From a virus (lineage: Duplodnaviria > Caudoviricetes): a DNA stretch of 64,000 nt. Below, one piece after another: positions 3,288-56,204 of the stretch (within the stretch, counting starts at the first letter, position 1; every line of letters starts with the position of its first letter). The notes under the pieces were generated by a model, which saw only the letters and a list, made by a program, of their open reading frames with translations, was not told the origin of the DNA and searched no databases. The stretch lies in the IMG/VR virus record IMGVR_UViG_3300045391_004484, positions 6,554 to 70,553 of that record, one strand, 5' to 3'. The position numbers were made by a program, and so were the translations under genes.

Positions 3288-4651
3288 GCGATCCACTGCA
3301 ACTGATTCGGCAAACCCAAGCGGAAAATCAATACCGCTACGCTGAGCAGCAGGACAGACAGCAGCGCATCGATCAGCAGCGGTCTAAGAGTTACACGTAT
3401 CAGGGCTATAACGCTGAATCAGGGCAATCAATTATCAGCAATGGCGACGATAGCATTAATGTAAATGGCAGCAATACGAATGGACTGATTAAACCGAATC
3501 AATCTGTTAAGTATCTGCAATCGGGGAATCAAAACACGATCGATCAAATGCCTCGACCGAAACGCACTGAGGATCAGACAACCTCTAGCGTTAGCGGCAA
3601 AATTAAAGTTCTGTTTACTATTGCTGAATCTAATTCCCTTAGCGTGTATGTGGGCGGGTGGAAATCTTCACCCGTAAAGCTTGCCACCTATCAGAATCAG
3701 GGTATAGGTACCCCATACTTGAACAATTTAGGCGGCGATCGGTTTATTGTTAGTTGGTTATTAGTTGATAGCAACGGCACCCCGATCGATGTAGTTGTAA
3801 AAACCAATGCAGGGGGATGGACACTAAAAGAGCTTCATCCTGATACCGATATCGCGTCTCTATTTCGTGCTTCTGATGGGCGATATTTGGGCAAGAATTT
3901 AGGCTTTGGGGTGTGGCGATTTGAAACTTTGGGCGTGCAGGTTGGCTCGCCCCCGGACGTAACATCTAACAGTATTCGAGGGATCTGGTATCGGGATATT
4001 TTGAGATCAGCCGATTACCTCGATCGTGTCACAACTACAGATCAGTACGAGGATTCGCTCTCTGAAGGTACGATTTTCTTGCTGCCCTCGCGGGCTGAGT
4101 CGGTTTCTATCTCTAGCAGAATTCCAGGGAGCGGGGCTGATCAATCTGCCTTCTATCGAAATGTCTTAACGTCTAACGCCTTTTTGGTCAATTCACCTCT
4201 GACAAGATCTTACGGCTATCGCAATCACACCACACAAACCAGCGCGAACGGTCGCCAGTTGCAAATTCAGGGCGATTCAGGGCTGTTTTTGTTTAAGCAG
4301 CTTACTGAGCAGATGTTGCTACCGGGTGTGTTTGATGACAACGATTTCAGGCAACTAACCGATAACAGCGCTGTTAATTCCCTCGTATCGGTCAATTGGG
4401 TAGGTGAGAAACTGCTCAGCGTGCCCGCTTTTCTAGATGGCACTACATTAAATTTTGCATTCGATCAGCCTGCAAAGTTCAAAAGCACGATCGAGGTAAC
4501 AGTAGTCGAGAGTGAGTTTGCGCCTGTAGTAGAGATCGAAGGATTCCAGATCCCGGAATCACGCCGCTTTAAGGCAAAAATCTATCCTCTCAAATCAGGA
4601 CTTAACCCCGACAAAACAGCAATTTTTGCTGCATCCTATCATCCCAATTAG
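3284..4651 (+). CDS. Tail-region structural protein; N-terminus paralogous to 4657..4932
   Basis: 455-aa ORF in the tail operon with ATGA overlap. Confidence 0.6.
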   Translation: MSDPLQLIRQTQAENQYRYAEQQDRQQRIDQQRSKSYTYQGYNAESGQSIISNGDDSINVNGSNTNGLIKPNQSVKYLQSGNQNTIDQMPRPKRTEDQTTSSVSGKIKVLFTIAESNSLSVYVGGWKSSPVKLATYQNQGIGTPYLNNLGGDRFIVSWLLVDSNGTPIDVVVKTNAGGWTLKELHPDTDIASLFRASDGRYLGKNLGFGVWRFETLGVQVGSPPDVTSNSIRGIWYRDILRSADYLDRVTTTDQYEDSLSEGTIFLLPSRAESVSISSRIPGSGADQSAFYRNVLTSNAFLVNSPLTRSYGYRNHTTQTSANGRQLQIQGDSGLFLFKQLTEQMLLPGVFDDNDFRQLTDNSAVNSLVSVNWVGEKLLSVPAFLDGTTLNFAFDQPAKFKSTIEVTVVESEFAPVVEIEGFQIPESRRFKAKIYPLKSGLNPDKTAIFAASYHPN

Positions 4652-5231: not shown

Positions 5232-5699
5232 ATGCCCTCGGGATTTATCAAAAATATCAACGGTCGGCAAACTCTTGAATATCCCACGATCGAGGAGATC
5301 AGCGGGCTATCTGATGCGTTGGCAGAATCCCAATCAGCAGAGATTGATAGCAATGCTTCGATCGGGCAACCTGTTTACATCAAAAATAGCGGGCACTTAG
5401 GGCTTGCTCAGGCATCATCAGCAGCATCGGCGCGAGTCGTAGGGCTTATCCTGGCAGATGCTCAATCAGCCACAAGTGCCGACTATAGCAGCATCGGCGT
5501 GATCGAAAGAAGCGATTGGACAGCGATCACAGGCTCGTTACTGCTCAGCGTTGGATCAACTTACTACCTCAGCCCTAATTCGGCGGGAATGTTGACTACA
5601 ACAGCCCCTCAGAACTCAGGGCTTTTCGTTGTGGCGATCGGCATCGCCAGCACCGATCAAAAGCTCTCTCTTGATATTCAGCCCCCTATCCTGCTTTAG
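5232..5699 (+). CDS. DUF2190-like beta-rich virion decoration/appendage protein
   Basis: GQPVYI...A.A......VGL...G...G..YYLS...G.LT..AP...G..V..IG.A......L.IQ.PILL pattern. Confidence 0.6.
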   Translation: MPSGFIKNINGRQTLEYPTIEEISGLSDALAESQSAEIDSNASIGQPVYIKNSGHLGLAQASSAASARVVGLILADAQSATSADYSSIGVIERSDWTAITGSLLLSVGSTYYLSPNSAGMLTTTAPQNSGLFVVAIGIASTDQKLSLDIQPPILL

Positions 5700-10515: not shown

Positions 10516-10718
10516 TTACCATCAGCTAAAAACGACGCTAAACCGCCGCTGTAATGGCGATTGACGCCGATTAGTATCTCTTGATCCGATAGTTCAGAAA
10601 TATCGTTCTCATCCTCTAAATCTGTCCAACCGCCGAGGCAGTCTGAAACCCACGATCGAGCCTCTTGAATTTGTTTTTCAGAAACCTCGTACTCCCTACC
10701 TTTAATCTGAATGTTCAC
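10512..10718 (-). CDS. Hypothetical protein
   Basis: 68-aa ORF with ATGA overlaps on both sides. Confidence 0.6.
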   Translation of the reverse strand: MNIQIKGREYEVSEKQIQEARSWVSDCLGGWTDLEDENDISELSDQEILIGVNRHYSGGLASFLADGN

Positions 10719-12361
10719 TGCCCAAACTCCCGCTTTACCTCACGATCGACCTTCTCACGATCCCATCCCCAAGCCTGTGCCATGCTGAGCAAGTACTCTC
10801 GATAGAACGATCGCACCTCTGCACTATCTGACTCAAAAATAGAGCCAAGCCAGAATTTAGGATCGTCCAACTTAACCTTAATGCCCAATGATTCGCACCT
10901 TGCCATCGCTGCGAAGGGTTTCCACCGCTTGGCATAGGCAATTTTTCGCCATTGCCGGAAGTAGGCAATGGCTCCCGCTTTAGATGCCAGTGCTATCGAC
11001 TCATCGATAAACGAAACTAGCTGCCCATCAGGGCTAACAAGCCTTACCGAGGCTTGAGGCTGCTCTGTTTTGCAGTGAGGGCAAATAAGCAACGACGCCG
11101 CGATCGACTTATCACAGTGAATGCAAGACTTGACAGGGGCAGAACCCTCGCCCTTGGCTTTGTATTGCAATACTGACTCATCGATCGACTCTGAGAGCAA
11201 TTCTATTTTGGGGTGCAAACCGCTGCCATCCCCGGCAAAGTCCCAATTTCTGGCAAAGTCCCATACATGCCCGAATTGTTTGCCAGCGTAGGGACGAGAG
11301 ACTCTGCCAACGATTTGAACATAGCGATCTCTAGACTTGATTTGCCGAAATAGCAAGCAATGCTGAGTAACGGGGGAATCCCATCCCGTCGAGAGTGCCT
11401 GCACACAGAGCAGATTGCACTCACCCGATTCATAGGCTTGCATGTAGCGCTCATAGTCGCTCTGACTCACGCCATCCCCTACGATTTCAAATCTAATCCC
11501 TTTGGAGGATCCGATCGCTTGAATCGTCTTTGCCTGAGAACGTCCATTCTTGGCTGCTTTAGTAAATCCCACGGCATAGCGTGGGGCGATTCTTAGCTCT
11601 CTGCATTTACCGAGCCATCGATCGAGCATCGAGGAGATTGCAGCATCAGAATCTAGATCTAGTTTTTCATCCTTCTCTAGATCCTCGCGGATCACGCTGT
11701 GATATTGCAGCGGGGCGAGATATCCTCGTTCCTGCAATTGCAGGTAAGAGGGCGAATTCACTAGGGCAGTGTTTCTCTGCAAGTTTCCATGACGCTCGTC
11801 GATGCCCATGCCTCTGTTAAATGGCGTGGCGGTGAAATTCAAGATTAATTTCCAAGCCCATAGCTCATAAGCTTTCTCAGCCTCTTTGAAAAAGGCGGCT
11901 GAGTGCCCCTCATCAAGGATCACAACATCCGTATCTTGTAACCACTGGTGAAGCGCTGCCCCCTTTGCCTGCAAGGTCTGAAGGGTAACAATTTGAATGG
12001 GGGCATACTCATTTGACAGCTCGGGGAACGCGCCCGAAAACACCCCAAACTTACCCGACAAGCCCTGTTGTATCAACGCCCCGCACATCTGAGAGGGTTC
12101 GGATACCGACTTAGTGACCACACAATTAGAGGGTACTAAAATTGTCGTTTTTAACCTCTGTTGATAGGCTCGACGGGCAAATGCTGCCATCGTTGCAGTT
12201 TTGCCCGATCCTGTAGAGGCAGAAACTAAAATTCTTCGATGCCCTTCATTAATACGATCGTCTAGATCTGCCAGCATTGTTAACTGATAATCCCGCAACT
12301 GGATCGACGGTTGCGGGATGTATTCAGGGATGAGTAAAGGGCGGCTTAGTGGGTAGTTCAC
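10715..12361 (-). CDS. SF2 DEAD/DEAH-box helicase (RadD/YejH-like) with C-terminal Zn ribbon
   Basis: LRDYQ, ASTGSGKT, ILDEGH, ALSTGWDSP, YVQIVGRVSRP; CxxC..CxxC; GTG start at 12361 after a GGAGG RBS. Confidence 0.88.
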   Translation of the reverse strand: MNYPLSRPLLIPEYIPQPSIQLRDYQLTMLADLDDRINEGHRRILVSASTGSGKTATMAAFARRAYQQRLKTTILVPSNCVVTKSVSEPSQMCGALIQQGLSGKFGVFSGAFPELSNEYAPIQIVTLQTLQAKGAALHQWLQDTDVVILDEGHSAAFFKEAEKAYELWAWKLILNFTATPFNRGMGIDERHGNLQRNTALVNSPSYLQLQERGYLAPLQYHSVIREDLEKDEKLDLDSDAAISSMLDRWLGKCRELRIAPRYAVGFTKAAKNGRSQAKTIQAIGSSKGIRFEIVGDGVSQSDYERYMQAYESGECNLLCVQALSTGWDSPVTQHCLLFRQIKSRDRYVQIVGRVSRPYAGKQFGHVWDFARNWDFAGDGSGLHPKIELLSESIDESVLQYKAKGEGSAPVKSCIHCDKSIAASLLICPHCKTEQPQASVRLVSPDGQLVSFIDESIALASKAGAIAYFRQWRKIAYAKRWKPFAAMARCESLGIKVKLDDPKFWLGSIFESDSAEVRSFYREYLLSMAQAWGWDREKVDREVKREFGQ

Positions 12362-19822: not shown

Positions 19823-19963
19823 ATGAAAAAGCTAACGGTTCGATGTTCAGATGAGGAGTATGCGGTACTGATGAAATACTGCAACGAGAAAGAGCGAAAA
19901 CAAAACGACATTCTTAGAGAGCTAATTAGATCGCTGGATCACCCGTCGAGGTCAAAGAAATGA
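19823..19963 (+). CDS. 46-aa CopG-like RHH protein (not in ORF track)
   Basis: Manual translation MKKLTVRCSDEEYAVLMKYCNEKERKQNDILRELIRSLDHPSRSKK; ATGA overlap with the next gene. Confidence 0.75.
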   Translation: MKKLTVRCSDEEYAVLMKYCNEKERKQNDILRELIRSLDHPSRSKK

Positions 19964-20487
19964 AGCTGTTGATCGTCGATAAAGACAACACACTTATCAA
20001 GCCGAAGTCAGGCGCGAAATTCGTCCAGTCCCCCGATGATCAGGAGTTATTGCCGGGTGTGTTCGATCGTGTGCAAGAGGCTAAAGACCAGGGCGCGATC
20101 GTGATTGTCGCCAGTAATCAAGGCGGCGTGGCAAGTCGGCATAAGACGCTTGATGCCACGCTCGACGAATTCGCTTACCTCATAAAACTGCTGCCCCAAA
20201 TCGATTACTGCTTATTTGCCCATACCTACGAAAATCTAGGCTATGGGGAATGTATCAAGATCGACGCCTCAGACAGCGGCTTTCAATGGAAACTCGTCAC
20301 TAATGGAGAGTGGCGATTTAGAAAGCCGAATCCGGGCATGATTAACCTAGCGATGAAGTTGGCAGAGGTAGATCGCGAGAATGCCCTAATGATTGGAGAT
20401 CGTGAGGAGGATCGACTGTCGGCTGAGGCGGCGAATGTGCCGTTTTTGTGGGCACAGCCTTGGACTGATCCATCACTTCCGTTTTAG
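19960..20487 (+). CDS. HAD-IIIA family phosphatase (GmhB / PNK 3'-phosphatase-like)
   Basis: DKDNT, SNQGG, RKPNPGM, MIGDREED motifs. Confidence 0.85.
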   Translation: MKLLIVDKDNTLIKPKSGAKFVQSPDDQELLPGVFDRVQEAKDQGAIVIVASNQGGVASRHKTLDATLDEFAYLIKLLPQIDYCLFAHTYENLGYGECIKIDASDSGFQWKLVTNGEWRFRKPNPGMINLAMKLAEVDRENALMIGDREEDRLSAEAANVPFLWAQPWTDPSLPF

Positions 20488-24849: not shown

Positions 24850-25142
24850 TGACTGACACACTTTTCGACGGCAATTTGACGAATGAAGAATGGCTCACCA
24901 TGCCAAATCTGATCCTTAATGCGGTGCAACTGCTGAGGCAAGCCGAGGGCAAGACGCCCGTAATGTGTCTCTCAAGTGGGTCGCTTGAGTTATGCGTTGG
25001 GTGCAGTGTGGGCGAGACGTTCATCTGTCCAACCTGTGAGCGACTGTTGCCAAATTGCTGGCGGGGCGATGAGCCGCTGTGTGATGTCTGCATTGCACAA
25101 CGGGATGATTTTGAACTGATCGCGAGAGGTGAAATTTTATGA
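24849..25142 (+). CDS. Cys-rich Zn-ribbon protein
   Basis: CVGC, CPTC, CDVC motifs. Confidence 0.55.
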   Translation: MTDTLFDGNLTNEEWLTMPNLILNAVQLLRQAEGKTPVMCLSSGSLELCVGCSVGETFICPTCERLLPNCWRGDEPLCDVCIAQRDDFELIARGEIL

Positions 25143-25561
25143 AGGGTATTTTATGGGCTGAATTGAGAAGTCCATTGGCGATCGGATGCGTTCACCCCAA
25201 CGGGAAGCCGCATCATGTAACCCTCAAATACGATATCGAGGCTGAGAATTGCCCGCCGTGGCTTGGTTTTTCGTTCATGGGTGTGGCTGTTGAGCACGTT
25301 TGGAACGACAAAGCACAGGCGCTACTTATTGAGTTGCCCGGATGGGTTGAGGAACTTTGCTCAAATCAATGCCCTCACCTTACGGTGTCATGGGCTGATG
25401 GGTTTGCGCCCGCTGCATCTAATGTAATGCTCGAAACCCGCGAGGGTGCAAGCTCTCTGCCGTTTTATGAAGTGCTGGAATTTGAGATCTGCTTTCATCC
25501 TTTCGAGGATCAAGGCGAATCTGCTGAGGGCATTCTGAATGCACGAGGGGCAGCAGCATGA
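25139..25561 (+). CDS. 2H phosphoesterase (two HxT motifs)
   Basis: HHVTL and PHLTV motifs, then G..PAASN.ML. Confidence 0.7.
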   Translation: MKGILWAELRSPLAIGCVHPNGKPHHVTLKYDIEAENCPPWLGFSFMGVAVEHVWNDKAQALLIELPGWVEELCSNQCPHLTVSWADGFAPAASNVMLETREGASSLPFYEVLEFEICFHPFEDQGESAEGILNARGAAA

Positions 25562-25719
25562 GAGCGAGAATCAGCCCCTTTAGGCGGCAATGTTCAGCCT
25601 GTAAGGAGACGTTTCACGGATCGAGCGTGCTTTTTACAGATAAAAAATCCAACCGACTGATCGAATGGTGCAGAGAGTGCGAGAAACTGAAATTAGACAA
25701 AAAAATGGGGGGCAGCTAG
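25558..25719 (+). CDS. 53-aa Zn-ribbon protein (not in ORF track)
   Basis: Manual translation MRARISPFRRQCSACKETF...WCRECEKLKLDKKMGGS; its stop overlaps the GTG of the replicase. Confidence 0.55.
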   Translation: MRARISPFRRQCSACKETFHGSSVLFTDKKSNRLIEWCRECEKLKLDKKMGGS

Positions 25720-28625
25720 TGACCGCCCCCAGATCAGACAAAAAAACTATTGTGATTTCAGCGTACCAAACCGATCAGATAGATGCAAAGCATCTTTATG
25801 AATGGCTGAATAGTGCCGTTGATCCGGGCATTATCGCCGCTAATGTCAGATCCATTTCTGGCTATGAAATTTACAATTTCGTCGGTTCTGAGCATATGTC
25901 TCGCCTTAACAGTGGGCGACTCAGTACCCGATGGACTCGGCGCTATGGACATCTAGAGCATGGCGCGTGGCAGTTCGCAGGGCTTGACCCAATCACGGGC
26001 GAGCGAATGGAGTGGGGATGCCTCAAGCCGGATCACCCCTTCATTAAGAGTGACTCTAAGCCACTAAAGTATGAGCACCCCTACAAGGTGCCCACTAGAG
26101 TCTTTATCCCTGCAAATCCTCATGATGAGGATTATTTAGAACGGACTAAGAGCGACACCTCGATCGACATCACGATCACTGAGGGCGCTAAAAAAGCGGC
26201 GTGTTTGCTCAGTCATGGGCACGTCACGATCGGTTTACCGGGTGTTACGGGTGCAGTAAGAAAGGATGAATCGACGGGTAAGAAGAGATATTTCTTGATT
26301 CCCGACTTTGAAGCCTTCGAGTGGAAGGAGCGCCGGGTAAATATTTTATTCGACCATGACCAAAAAGCCAGTACACGCCGAAATGTTGAGATCGAGATTG
26401 CCAAACTCTCGAAACAATTGAAATTGAGAGGCGCTAAGCCTTATGTGGTATCCCTACCGGGCAAAGAAAAGGGCGTCGATGATTTTGTAATGGCTCGTGG
26501 GGCTGAGGCTCTAGAAAAGCTCTACGATGAGGCGCTGCCCTTCGAGGCTTGGGAAGTAAGGCAGTATCAGCGCCTAACCTACCCGGTAGCTCAGCAAGTG
26601 AGCCACCGATTTTTAGATGTGCAAATCCCGACTCAAGGATTAGTGGGCATTAAATCGCCCAAAGGAACGGGAAAAACTGAATCGATCGCTAAGGTTGTGC
26701 AGAGTTTACTTGATGACTGCAAGCGAATTTTATTTATTACTCACCGGGTGCAGTTGGGCGAGACGCTCGGCAAGCGGGTAGGGCTGCCCTACGTTTCTGA
26801 GCTTGGCTCAGTCGGTGAGGGCGATTTATTTGGATACGTGCTTTGCGCCGATTCGATGGTGCAGGATTCACAGGCTCGTTTTAGCCCCGCCGGATGGGAC
26901 GCAGTGATCATCGATGAGGCTGAACAGGTTTTATGGCACATTCTCGACTCAAGGACTGAGATCGAGAATCGGCGCATCCCAGTTTTAGAGAATTTGCAGC
27001 AAGTTTTATCGGATCAGCTCACGGGCGAGGGGCTTGTAGTGCTGATGGATGCTGATTTAACGGATGTATCGATCGATTTCGTCAAAGACATGGGCGGCGT
27101 GCCTGATTTGGTGCCCTATATCATCGAGAATGCTTGGACGCCTGACAGCGAGGCATGGAACGTCTACAACTACGAGCAAAACAACCCCGAGGCGCTCTAC
27201 GCTCAAGCGATCGATCTGTTGGATCAAGATCAAAAGTTGATTATTTTCACCCATAGCCAACAGGCTAAGGGTAGATGGAGCACCCGAACCCTAGAAAAGT
27301 GCTTTGCTCGGCGCTATCCCGGGAAAAAGATTCTGAGGATTGATAGCCAATCGATCAGCGAACCCGGTCATCCGGCGTGCGGCTGTATTCCAGTTTTGAA
27401 CGAGATTCTTGGACTCTACGACATTGTGATCGCCTCGCCCTCGCTAGAAACGGGCGTATCCATTGACATTCGCGGGCATTTCGATGCTGTCTTGGGTTTC
27501 TTCTCAGGGGTAACGCCCGCCGATTCAGTACGGCAGACGCTCTCGCGGGTGAGAGATTCCATCGATCGCTATATTTGGGTAGCAAAGAGAGGACTAAGAG
27601 CCATTGATAACGGCTCAACATCGGCTCAAGAATTGCTCGATAGCCAACGGAAGAAAGCCTCTTACCACGTTCGCCAACTTGCCCACCTCTCAGAGGTTTC
27701 TCTAAACGAGGACGCGATCGAGACTAACGCCCCGCTTAAGGTGTGGGCAAAACTGGCAGCCCGGATTAATGCAGGCATTGCCAATTACCGCGAAACCGTG
27801 ATTTCGGGGCTTGCAAGCGAAGGGCACCACATTCTAAAGCAAGAGGCGATCGGAGATCGGGATCTCACTGAAGAATTGATCCAATGCCGTGATGAAGGAT
27901 ACGAGGCTCATTGCGCTGCTATCGCGCAGGCTGAGAACATCACGCCCCGCAAATATGAGGAACTCAAATCGAAAAAATCGAAATCTGAGGAAGAGTGGCA
28001 CCAACAGAAGAAGTATTTTCTTCAGCAGCGCTACCAGTGCCAAGACATTAGCCCCGAAATGATTGCTCAGGATGATAAGGGGTGGCACTCAAAATTACGG
28101 CTGCATTATTTCCTTGGCGTAGGTCGAGATCATCTCAATCACCGTGAGGTGAGCAAATTCCAAACCTCGATCTGCAACGGGAAAGTATGGCAACCGACGC
28201 TCAACAGGGGGCAGTTAGGGCTAAAGATGGCGCTAATTGAATTTCTTGGCATTCGGCAACTACTCGACCCATTGCAGACCTATCACAAAAATCATGATGC
28301 AGTTCTGGCGGTGGCATCGGCGGCAAGGGCAAACCGATGGCTCGTGAGGACAGCGCTCGGCGTGAGTGCTTCTGAACAGGCAAGCGAGATCCAAATCTGT
28401 CAAAGCTTACTCGGACTCCTTGGGCTGAAGCTTAAAGGTGAGGGTAGACCGGGCGGGCGAGGTGAGGCTCGCGTGAGGCTCTACCGATTTGTAGATCCGG
28501 AGGACGATCGCGAGGGAATTTTTGAGCGATGGCTCGAACGAGATGAAGCGGCTCGGCAATCCCACGAAGAAGCGATCGTGTCCACCCCCGGTATAAATAA
28601 GAATCTAGGGGAGGCAGCAGCATGA
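25719..28625 (+). CDS. DUF3854 primase-helicase, cyanobacterial plasmid replication protein (CyRepA1 family)
   Basis: KPLKYEHP, ITEGAKKA, ILFDHD, KGVDDF (Toprim-like); SPKGTGKTE, ITHRVQL, IIDEAEQ (helicase); GTG at 25719 in frame with track start 25665. Confidence 0.88.
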   Translation: MTAPRSDKKTIVISAYQTDQIDAKHLYEWLNSAVDPGIIAANVRSISGYEIYNFVGSEHMSRLNSGRLSTRWTRRYGHLEHGAWQFAGLDPITGERMEWGCLKPDHPFIKSDSKPLKYEHPYKVPTRVFIPANPHDEDYLERTKSDTSIDITITEGAKKAACLLSHGHVTIGLPGVTGAVRKDESTGKKRYFLIPDFEAFEWKERRVNILFDHDQKASTRRNVEIEIAKLSKQLKLRGAKPYVVSLPGKEKGVDDFVMARGAEALEKLYDEALPFEAWEVRQYQRLTYPVAQQVSHRFLDVQIPTQGLVGIKSPKGTGKTESIAKVVQSLLDDCKRILFITHRVQLGETLGKRVGLPYVSELGSVGEGDLFGYVLCADSMVQDSQARFSPAGWDAVIIDEAEQVLWHILDSRTEIENRRIPVLENLQQVLSDQLTGEGLVVLMDADLTDVSIDFVKDMGGVPDLVPYIIENAWTPDSEAWNVYNYEQNNPEALYAQAIDLLDQDQKLIIFTHSQQAKGRWSTRTLEKCFARRYPGKKILRIDSQSISEPGHPACGCIPVLNEILGLYDIVIASPSLETGVSIDIRGHFDAVLGFFSGVTPADSVRQTLSRVRDSIDRYIWVAKRGLRAIDNGSTSAQELLDSQRKKASYHVRQLAHLSEVSLNEDAIETNAPLKVWAKLAARINAGIANYRETVISGLASEGHHILKQEAIGDRDLTEELIQCRDEGYEAHCAAIAQAENITPRKYEELKSKKSKSEEEWHQQKKYFLQQRYQCQDISPEMIAQDDKGWHSKLRLHYFLGVGRDHLNHREVSKFQTSICNGKVWQPTLNRGQLGLKMALIEFLGIRQLLDPLQTYHKNHDAVLAVASAARANRWLVRTALGVSASEQASEIQICQSLLGLLGLKLKGEGRPGGRGEARVRLYRFVDPEDDREGIFERWLERDEAARQSHEEAIVSTPGINKNLGEAAA

Positions 28626-55279: not shown

Positions 55280-55914
55280 AAGGCGAGAGCGAGCCTGATT
55301 GGGTAGCAATATTCTGGCGACTTCAGAAGTATTGGGGGCACGATCGAAGGTTCAATGATGAGAACTTTGCTCATCAGCCGATGAGCTTGATCTTTCAGGC
55401 TCTCGAGTGGGGGGCAAAGTTGCATCATGAGGATCTGCACTTGCAAGAGTTGGGTATCGCCACCTTATCGAGCTTGTTTGTCAACGCCAACCGGGGCAAG
55501 GATTCCGAGGCTGCGAAGCCCTCAAACTTCTATTATTTCCAGACCCAATCTGAGCAGGCAGTTTCGATCCCTGTTGCCGTGTGTGATGCTTTCTTTAGTT
55601 GCATCAAGGACGGTATTTTGCCCGCTTGGGCTGTGCCACTGTGCCCGATCGATGCGCTTGAGAAAGGCAAATCCGGCGGTAAGGTGCCTCGCCCTCGGTT
55701 GTGGGTTGGGGATGGCGTGATTCTGATTCTGCCCCAAATTCAAGGTAAGCAGGTTTCAGCAGCATTCGCCCTAATCAATCAGGCTGAGGGGATTATCGAC
55801 GTGAAAGATCCCGATAGCGATCGGTGGTTTGCGGTCGAGGTGCCCGATGAGGATTGCTGGATACTTGAGGCAGAATTCCCGATCGTAGACTCGAAAATTG
55901 TTCTACTTTCTTAG
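55267..55914 (+). CDS. Tail assembly chaperone gpT part (C-terminus of the gpGT frameshift product)
   Basis: Open -1 frame from the slippery site through the 55381..55914 ORF. Confidence 0.75.
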   Translation, partial: GKILEGESEPDWVAIFWRLQKYWGHDRRFNDENFAHQPMSLIFQALEWGAKLHHEDLHLQELGIATLSSLFVNANRGKDSEAAKPSNFYYFQTQSEQAVSIPVAVCDAFFSCIKDGILPAWAVPLCPIDALEKGKSGGKVPRPRLWVGDGVILILPQIQGKQVSAAFALINQAEGIIDVKDPDSDRWFAVEVPDEDCWILEAEFPIVDSKIVLLS

Positions 55915-55928
55915 CCTTGGTGCAAAAT

Positions 55929-56002
55929 AGAGACGCGGTGAAAACGCATAGAATTGTCTTCATAAGGCAAAGCCCCTTTCTGTCGTTGGATTGGGGCTTT
56001 TT
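55929..56002 (+). ncRNA. Candidate small RNA A
   Basis: CAAAAT -10-like box at 55923, short hairpin, terminator AAAGCCCC..GGGGCTTTTT (55969-56002). Confidence 0.35.
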
Positions 56003-56014
56003 GTTGGTCGAATG

Positions 56015-56042
56015 TTGCGATCGTAAAACACTGGTGTAAAAT
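56015..56042 (+). promoter_or_regulatory. Sigma70-type promoter of the repeat-containing small RNA
   Basis: TTGCGA (56015-56020), 16 bp, TAAAAT (56037-56042). Confidence 0.55.
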
Positions 56043-56048
56043 GGCTCT

Positions 56049-56162
56049 AACCTGTTGCTAGGTTAGGTTAAGAATCCTCATCCCACTGGGGATATCAATT
56101 GAATGGGAACGCTCCGAACTCGGTAATAATAAAGCCTCTACTCTTGGGTAGGGGCTTTATTG
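56049..56162 (+). ncRNA. Candidate small RNA B carrying a solitary CRISPR repeat unit (Racr-like)
   Basis: Promoter, 5' hairpin CTAACCT/AGGTTAG, repeat-like 37-mer, 20-nt segment, terminator AAAGCCTC..GGGGCTTT. Confidence 0.6.
56074..56110 (+). CRISPR. Solitary CRISPR repeat-like unit, cyanobacterial type III-B-like (not an array)
   Basis: ATCCTCATCCCACTGGGGATATCAATTGAATGGGAAC resembles, from memory, cyanobacterial repeats such as GTCCCCACTCGCTGGGGAAATTAATTGAATGGAAAC; stem CCTCA/TGGGG retained. Confidence 0.65.
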
Positions 56163-56204
56163 TTGAGTAGGAATGTTGCGATCGTTGTTATTCCACGATC
56201 GGCA

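Follow-up and report, generated by a model that had tools for sequence, protein, structure and literature searches.

In the present study, a solitary imitation of a CRISPR (short palindromic repeats that are clustered and regularly interspaced) repeat was characterized in a stretch of 64,000 nt (the window, bases 6554-70553) of the IMG/VR virus record IMGVR_UViG_3300045391_004484, which is 70,553 bp long, is judged 82% complete and comes from a virus of filamentous cyanobacteria. A sequence-only reading of the window had described a small-RNA unit with a promoter pair, a 5' hairpin, a 37-mer resembling cyanobacterial type III-B repeats and a terminator hairpin, and all of these parts were found where they had been placed. 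Judging from sequence comparison, the unit is most likely a small RNA gene that imitates the repeat of host arrays belonging to a Cas6-less type III-B system (III-Bv). Herein, we propose that its product acts as an RNA anti-CRISPR, or decoy CRISPR RNA (crRNA), which would be cut by RNase E and loaded into the Cmr complex, a proposal that we consider evenly balanced between right and wrong. Phages find it difficult to evade type III systems through mutation, and such systems are common among cyanobacteria. To our knowledge, RNA anti-CRISPRs have been proven only for types I and V, where they trap Cas6 or Cas12a. The theme of solitary repeat units (SRUs) and RNA anti-CRISPRs (Racrs) is already established (Faure 2019, as cited by Camara-Wilpert et al.; Camara-Wilpert et al. 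2023, PMC10651486), and the novelty of the present unit lies in a host target that is Cas6-less and RNase E-dependent.

First, the imitated repeat belongs to a real host family. Searching a species-representative genome collection with a degenerate pattern of 23 nt, derived from the 3' portion of the repeat, gave more than 120 loci. Nearly all of them lie in filamentous cyanobacteria (among them Microcoleus, Leptolyngbya, Nodosilinea, Myxacorys and Nostocales); the largest arrays reach 90 copies, and many hold 20-90 copies at a period of 72-78 nt. Their consensus is of the very family that the sequence-only reading had named as a cyanobacterial type III-B repeat, and this naming proved correct. 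The 36-nt consensus is built, in order, of a 6-bp stem, a 5-nt loop, a 4-nt variable linker and the 14-nt AATTGAATGGAAAC. The loop reads CTCGC or CTCGT in 98% of 1565 copies, and the fourth base from the end of the repeat is A in 1563 of the 1565. The arrays adjoin cmr3, cmr4, cmr5, cmr6, a CARF-HEPN csx1 and cas1, in an order common to at least seven loci, and in two extended loci a short cas10b upstream and a divergent CARF-WYL gene complete the module; by these neighbouring genes, the host system with matching arrays is type III-B. No cas6 was seen in the two extended loci. The CARF-WYL genes, which diverge from the cas10b-cmr operon (10560-11738 in locus L128 and 11165-12328 in L129), likely encode a regulator of the host system responsive to cyclic oligoadenylate (cOA).

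The repeat of CRISPR3 from Synechocystis sp. PCC 6803 (PMC3575380, Table 1 of that paper) aligns to the host family over its whole length, and by this alignment the host family is the CRISPR3 family, III-Bv. CRISPR3 operates without Cas6: RNase E cleaves an A/U tract after the stem-loop and leaves a tag of 13/14 nt (PMC3575380, PMC12464536). Moreover, CRISPR3 RNA from beyond the last repeat builds up at the size of a crRNA although no second repeat follows (PMC3575380), and a 5' repeat alone therefore anchors crRNA formation in this family. The sequence-only reading, which looked for Cas6/RNase E products, was thus right about type III-B and needs correction on the processing, since the relevant nuclease of this family is RNase E and its handle is the 13/14-nt tag instead of an 8-nt Cas6 tag. 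The promoter of the host arrays is conserved across genera (TGGACA-17-TATAAT) and ends 7-8 nt ahead of the first repeat, which agrees with the 1-nt leader reported for CRISPR3, whose promoter abuts the first repeat. Upstream of this promoter, the host leaders (70 nt 5' of the first repeats, loci L002-L121) carry a conserved CCTCGCAAATGG box. When compared with Rfam, the host repeats barely touch CRISPR-DR58. Single repeat copies with altered stems also stand outside arrays in cyanobacterial genomes (L015, L016, L066, L097 and L099), and these may be prophage-borne units or array remnants.

Second, the phage 37-mer is a close and solitary copy of this repeat. Its last 25 nt show only 1-2 base differences from the closest host variants, one of which turns GGAAAC into GGGAAC in the tag; the phage tag is otherwise that of the hosts, with G for A at the fourth base from the end. 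The stem survives through a G-U pair, as had been noted, and comprises 7 bp (one of them G-U) closed by a 6-nt loop of other sequence, compared with 6 bp and a 5-nt loop in the hosts. The covariance model R2, for which nine host repeats and nothing else were used, aligned to the phage copy over its full length with 29.0 bits (E = 1.4e-4 over 0.49 Mb). The 37-mer occurs once in the window (at up to three mismatches, with 0 expected) and once in the 70,553-bp record, the tag is present once at up to two mismatches, and R2 has a single match in the 70.5-kb record. The copy is intergenic, with no second repeat, full or partial, within about 100 bp and no array, and tblastn with host Cas10b, Cmr3-6, Csx1 and Cas1 found no cas gene in the window or in the other phage loci; the earlier observations of a lone repeat and a window devoid of cas genes are upheld. 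The exact 23-mer of the phage copy has no match in IMG/VR. Compared with CRISPR3, most of the sequence is held in common, as is a stem-loop at nt 2-18 followed by an 18-nt single strand that ends in the tag, and the hosts have the same Cmr effector, Csx1-type partners and absence of Cas6 (Scholz 2013, PMC3575380; Behler 2018, as cited in PMC12464536). However, CRISPR3 belongs to a host, with 38 spacers in its array and with cas genes, whereas the phage has one copy, a 25-nt hairpin leader, a changed loop, one tag change and a terminator instead of a spacer.

The 122-nt RNA of the unit is predicted to fold with -45.7 kcal/mol (z = -4.5 compared with shuffled sequences). The promoter-like site scores 9/12 in the promoter scan, and the surroundings of its -10 box resemble, at the level of the consensus only, the -10 region of about 90 host leaders. 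The 5' leader hairpin has no counterpart in the host arrays, where the -10 box stands just ahead of the repeat. The 20-nt segment that had been reported after the repeat is present at its place, but 6 of its 20 bases (56125-56130) lie in the terminator stem, and the free stretch, or pseudo-spacer, is therefore only 14 nt long. The arms of this terminator (56125-56141 and 56148-56164) have 17 nt each and are 88% complementary. If the 37-mer is handled like the homologous repeat of Synechocystis CRISPR3, RNase E should cut it where the linker meets the tag. An upstream "cassette 1" (55915-56010) was considered as a second, degenerate unit and rejected, as it gave no covariance-model match at E<=1.

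Third, comparable units recur in three other cyanophages, in support of the sequence-only reading. Two pattern scans of IMG/VR yielded three further solitary copies with a proper hairpin (L127, L130 and L133; Table 1). Over seven phage records (489.5 kb), R2 gave exactly four matches, all of full length and one per unit-bearing record (29.0 bits in the window and 40.5, 38.5 and 28.6 bits in the other three), and none in the three records of the closest relatives of the window. In all four units, a GC stem of 6-8 bp closes a loop of 4-6 nt and leaves linker and tag free, and the sequences of stem and loop differ among them; the hairpins can be counted as independently observed, since upstream of the tag the scans asked for nothing beyond GGGG. 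The four phages are distantly related, with few common genes and 35-55% protein identity, and are rich in the cyanobacterial HIP1 motif (8-mer GCGATCGC, 25 copies compared with 2.3 expected in the phage studied here). Their units occupy different gene contexts. Each unit is followed after 13-27 nt by a terminator-like hairpin, and stable hairpins fill the would-be guide region in all four. The L130 unit mirrors the layout of a host array (TTGACG-17-TAATTT, 6 nt, repeat); there (5410-5500, minus strand) the tag is directly followed by a 12/13 reverse complement of itself, which could be an anti-tag or antisense feature, and then by a 17-bp terminator hairpin. Apart from this anti-tag of L130, which exists at the level of sequence, sequestration of the tag by downstream pairing was discarded as a common design, because the pairing probabilities lay within the distribution for host spacers (fractions 0.15-0.74). 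Pattern matches in L125, L131 and L132 lacked a stem-loop and look like chance. Separately, an 11.9-kb contig classed as viral and 11% complete (L126, IMGVR_UViG_3300021392_000005) holds two small convergent arrays of the host family with 2 and 4 repeats (10540-11409), of which the second has a host-type promoter and ends in a truncated repeat and a terminator; these arrays are either a phage mini-array or host DNA.

In L133, the 119 nt that house the unit separate a Csx3-like gene (28.9 bits to Pfam PF09620, which exceeds the cut-off; E = 2.5e-18 to PADLOC Csx3) from an AcrIII-1/DUF1874-like gene (PF08960, 52 bits), within a gene run of PNK3P-like, Csx3-like, AcrIII-1/DUF1874-like and HD_4 genes. 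The Csx3 (Csx3/Crn3, PF09620) and AcrIII-1 (DUF1874, PF08960) families are established cOA ring nucleases. From its gene content, this run is likely an anti-type III and RNA-repair island. A minus-strand terminator lies 27 nt downstream of the unit. Like the RNA proposed here, AcrIII-1 and Csx3/Crn3 are counter-measures to type III signalling, and both flank this sister unit; unlike it, they are proteins that degrade cOA. In the phage of the window, neither family was found, which would leave the RNA as the one device of this phage that can be recognised as directed specifically against type III. Searching IMG/VR for relatives of the L133 ring nucleases gave two distant loci, with no unit nearby.

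Fourth, the phage lineage and the host family are linked through a cyanobacterial genome. The 177-aa protein encoded upstream of the unit has relatives at 72-74% in three records of IMG/VR, of which two are classed as proviruses, and was found in 2 of 401 sampled cyanobacterial genomes. One genome, Myxacorys californica WJT36-NPBG1 (G305), has two copies with 71-72% identity and also holds at least 130 repeats of the host family in four arrays, so that, at the level of the lineage, the matching CRISPR-Cas subtype exists in a genome with two phage relatives. A Myxacorys III-Bv spacer (L226, G305:C64) agrees in 34 of 37 bases with the tape-measure gene of one relative (G006, L123:6162-6198), and another agrees in 23 of 24 bases with a second relative (G007); since these spacers match relatives, arrays of the host family have sampled this phage lineage. 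The former spacer has the same sense as the tape-measure mRNA and would therefore pair only with antisense RNA.

From these findings, the following sequence of events is proposed. The RNA of the unit would be made from its own promoter or by read-through, and the housekeeping RNase E of the host would recognise the GC stem-loop and cut the short A/U linker as in real repeats. On the 3' product, the 13/14-nt crRNA tag would then have no more than 14 free bases between it and a strong hairpin. This RNA might be loaded, in place of crRNAs that target the phage, by Cmr subunits recognising the tag, giving useless or incomplete complexes, and the altered tag base together with the hairpin may render such complexes defective. 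The phage would then meet weaker type III interference and weaker cOA/Csx1 signalling. We favour a decoy because the tag is the best-kept part of the copy, a lone repeat suffices in this family, and the space for a guide is short and structured. More tentatively, and at somewhat less than even chances, we suggest the fuller picture of a Cas6-independent RNA anti-CRISPR against type III systems, matured by the RNase E of the host into a tagged, hairpin-blocked pseudo-crRNA that poisons Cmr, which some cyanophages would pair with Csx3 and AcrIII-1 in a layered island.

The unit resembles the SRUs and Racrs of PMC10651486 in several respects, namely a single repeat look-alike in a viral intergenic region with a promoter-like site upstream and no cas genes, a sequence and fold similar to the repeats of the host CRISPR type, and acr neighbours (here in L133). 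Tested Racrs often adjoin acr genes (PMC10651486), and none was found beside the unit of the window, whose neighbours are the 177-aa protein and a Peptidase_C39_2-like protein. The nine candidates tested in that study were of types I-C, I-E, I-F and V-A, and its supplement lists SRUs typed III-A, III-B and III-D; no unit with the tag of the host family was seen in the portion of the list compared. The cut-offs of SRUFinder are a coverage of at least 90% and a BLAST bit score of at least 41.1 (PMC10651486), and the unit, which was judged by R2 instead, is likely too diverged in its 5' third to pass them. RacrIF1 acts by holding Cas6f and Cas7f (PMC10651486); since the host system considered here is Cas6-less and dependent on RNase E, this Cas6-trapping route is excluded, and both the maturation and the sequestered partner must differ. 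Cracr RNAs (Liu et al., bioRxiv 10.1101/2024.10.29.618823) are likewise phage-encoded and join a repeat to a short pseudo-spacer in competition with the crRNAs of the host for Cas proteins, but the Cracr pseudo-spacer is partly complementary to host cas or toxin promoters, and only types V-A and I-B/C/E/F have been reported. Here, no such complementarity was found in the host sample searched (the two cmr loci L128 and L129 and 120 array loci), and type III effectors act on RNA, not on promoters. Cyanophage N-1 (bioRxiv 10.1101/2020.04.14.041012) also carries host-type repeats that can be processed by host enzymes; however, it has a multi-spacer array of another repeat group that is cut by Cas6, whereas the present phage has a single repeat without a full-length spacer. 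The sequence-only reading knew of no characterised type III Racr in a cyanophage, and in the literature searched we likewise found none that was tested against type III or described in a cyanophage. Protein inhibitors of type III are also few, with three of more than 80 Acr families according to an NAR 2024 abstract.

Several observations weigh against the decoy. The promoter match is no better than chance, with one found compared with 1.8 expected in a 1.4-kb stretch. The tag change falls on the position that is nearly invariant in host repeats, none of the 1565 host copies has a tag with GGGAAC at its end, and a metagenome scan found the GGGAAC variant in no host array; its 83 matches to the variant were dismissed as chance, as none had a stem-loop or an array, and because no array of the collection contains it, GGGAAC is a peculiarity of the phage. 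This change could be a design feature or decay. In the L127, L130 and L133 units, the conservation of the tag is by construction, as the scan patterns demanded it exactly, and the L133 unit lies on the strand opposite to the ring-nuclease genes with no promoter predicted. Among 1527 spacers from the first 120 host loci and 116 from Myxacorys, none matches the record of the window. The three closest relatives and the two Myxacorys copies are without the unit, so that there is no evidence of conservation for the copy in the window. Finally, a decoy acting by pure competition must outnumber a large pool of crRNAs.

Some of these points would also suit a relic, in which a fragment from some host array, or the final repeat of a phage mini-array that had decayed, was gained by recombination and is now drifting. 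The absence from the closest relatives, the mutated tag position and a loop different from the conserved host loop are in line with it, as is a skew of the differences to the 5' part, which is weak alone (rough binomial estimate, p ~0.06 under one alignment). The flanks fit too: an exact 15-bp direct repeat (family D4, two copies, 100% identical, spacing 161 nt) brackets the unit, and the terminators on its two sides are alike (55986-56000 and 56144-56158, 87%, direct-repeat family D6), as expected from insertion by recombination. At the corresponding site, L124 and L217 have a single terminator homologous to 56125-56164, then a 15-19-bp motif and the next gene; the 15-bp motif occurs once, after a single terminator, in L124, L122 and L217, and L123 has nothing there. 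Compared with these single copies, the window thus has an insert upstream of the ancestral terminator, with the terminator and the motif duplicated at its two ends. This junction is variable, and the downstream gene differs too; in the related provirus L122 (3531-3795), a different 260-nt non-coding insert precedes the common terminator, with no host match and weak structure only (z = -2). We nevertheless regard a relic as unlikely. The stem is kept through the G-U pair, the geometry from loop to tag is kept, and the copy still matches R2 with the E value given above. Solitary units also occur in three more phages, with hairpins that differ but are intact and with a terminator after each, and one of these units lies inside a ring-nuclease pair. 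The flanks of the window's copy have nothing in common with host leaders or spacers except the -10 box.

It is still less probable that the decoy proposed above is instead a one-guide mini-array, in which the single repeat suffices and the phage uses the host Cmr with a downstream guide against a competing phage, some transcript of the host or cas mRNAs (as for Cracr/crlRNAs). The crRNA-sized RNA formed past the last CRISPR3 repeat (PMC3575380), the cas-free arrays known in cyanobacterial phages, e.g. N-1, and the small arrays of the host family on the viral-classed contig L126 would make such a device conceivable. The room for a guide argues otherwise, as the 14 free bases after the tag, which are too few for a 29-35-nt guide, run into a 17-bp hairpin, and the downstream regions are structured in all four units. 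Moreover, the idea that the RNA redirects host complexes, raised by the sequence-only reading, found no backing, because no target emerged: the 20-mer downstream segment had no match in IMG/VR, the 49-mer downstream sequence had none in 50,697 phage records, and the pseudo-spacer had no match of at least 13 nt beyond chance in the relatives, the window, L128, L129 or the 120 array loci. The siblings have no matching sequence at the insertion site other than the common terminator, and type III targeting would also set off Csx1 signalling, which would harm the phage. A "homing cassette" with a guide against siblings lacking the insert was rejected, since the siblings share the terminator only; type III targets RNA, and the guide would match the sense of the sibling's transcript. 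Least probable of all, and indeed very improbable, is another role in RNA or DNA (an RNase E site that lies between upstream gene and tail genes and shapes the stability of phage mRNA, a recombination site with host arrays, or a decoy for the spacer-integration machinery). In favour of such a role, the unit sits at a terminator/promoter junction, RNase E recognises exactly such a stem-loop and A/U tract (PMC12464536), and solitary repeats were early on proposed to serve array integration (quoted in PMC10651486). Against it, a simple RNase E site could do without the 14-nt Cmr tag, which is the part kept best; the element encodes a plasmid-type DUF3854 replicase; about 25 nt of common identity is short for homologous recombination; and the ring-nuclease link of L133 points to type III defence.

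If the decoy reading is true, this strategy works through a housekeeping nuclease and the tag-binding site of Cmr. A direct test is within reach in Synechocystis 6803, where the same repeat family is present, genetic tools exist, interference can be assayed and an assay of RNase E cleavage has been published. In addition, the mapping of anti-type III islands in cyanophages could start from the four units, of which one has ring nucleases on both sides.

Table 1. Positions of the repeat unit and its neighbours in the window, and of the solitary units in other cyanophages
Feature	Position	Strand	Basis or remark
177-aa open reading frame (ORF), unknown family	55381-55914		upstream neighbour of repeat unit
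Terminator-like hairpin and T run, 3' of 177-aa ORF; resembles terminator of unit	55969-56002	+	sequence
15-bp direct repeat, copy 1, contains -35 hexamer	56010-56024	+	family D4
Sigma-70-like promoter: TTGCGA (56015-56020), 16-nt spacer, TAAAAT (56037-56042)	56015-56042	+	promoter scan
5' leader hairpin, 9 bp, 4-nt loop, between predicted start and repeat	56046-56067	+	fold
Repeat look-alike 37-mer	56074-56110	+	
Stem-loop of repeat mimic, 7 bp including one G-U, 6-nt loop	56074-56093	+	folds, alignment to R2
Single-stranded 3-nt linker and 14-nt tag (tag 56097-56110)	56094-56110	+	
14-nt single-stranded "pseudo-spacer"	56111-56124	+	between repeat and terminator stem
Terminator hairpin of unit, inverted repeat I1	56125-56164	+	
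15-bp direct repeat, copy 2, just 5' of Peptidase_C39_2-like gene	56171-56185	+	family D4
Peptidase_C39_2-like ORF	56160/56207-56792		downstream neighbour of repeat unit
L127 unit	5567-5601	-	99.9-kb record
L130 unit	5464-5499	-	64.9-kb record, classed as provirus
L133 unit	3327-3363	-	154-kb record, 98% complete
L133 gene run	L133:1207-4658		IMGVR_UViG_3300041964_000083, ~141.5-144.9 kb

The unit of the window occupies a gap of 245-292 nt between the 177-aa ORF and the Peptidase_C39_2-like ORF, which is followed by a tape-measure gene of more than 2360 codons, and thus stands at a terminator/promoter junction within the late structural module. A search of the window for tRNA and transfer-messenger RNA genes found none, and Rfam gave no family at gathering score, with only terminator-like noise at loose thresholds. 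Elsewhere in the window, a 986-aa replicase candidate (25665-28625, plus strand) contains a domain matching DUF3854 (117 bits) and weakly matches a helicase, and the element that carries the unit is a cyanophage or a phage-plasmid. A PNK3P-like gene lies at about 19858-20463. Just upstream of the replicase candidate, a 140-aa protein with two conserved HxT motifs is encoded (25139-25561, plus strand); in its AlphaFold model (predicted local distance difference test score 91.6), the closest structure is the CNPase 2H phosphoesterase domain (template modelling score 0.57-0.60), and this predicted fold suggests that the protein could have a role in the degradation of cyclic nucleotide signals or in RNA repair.

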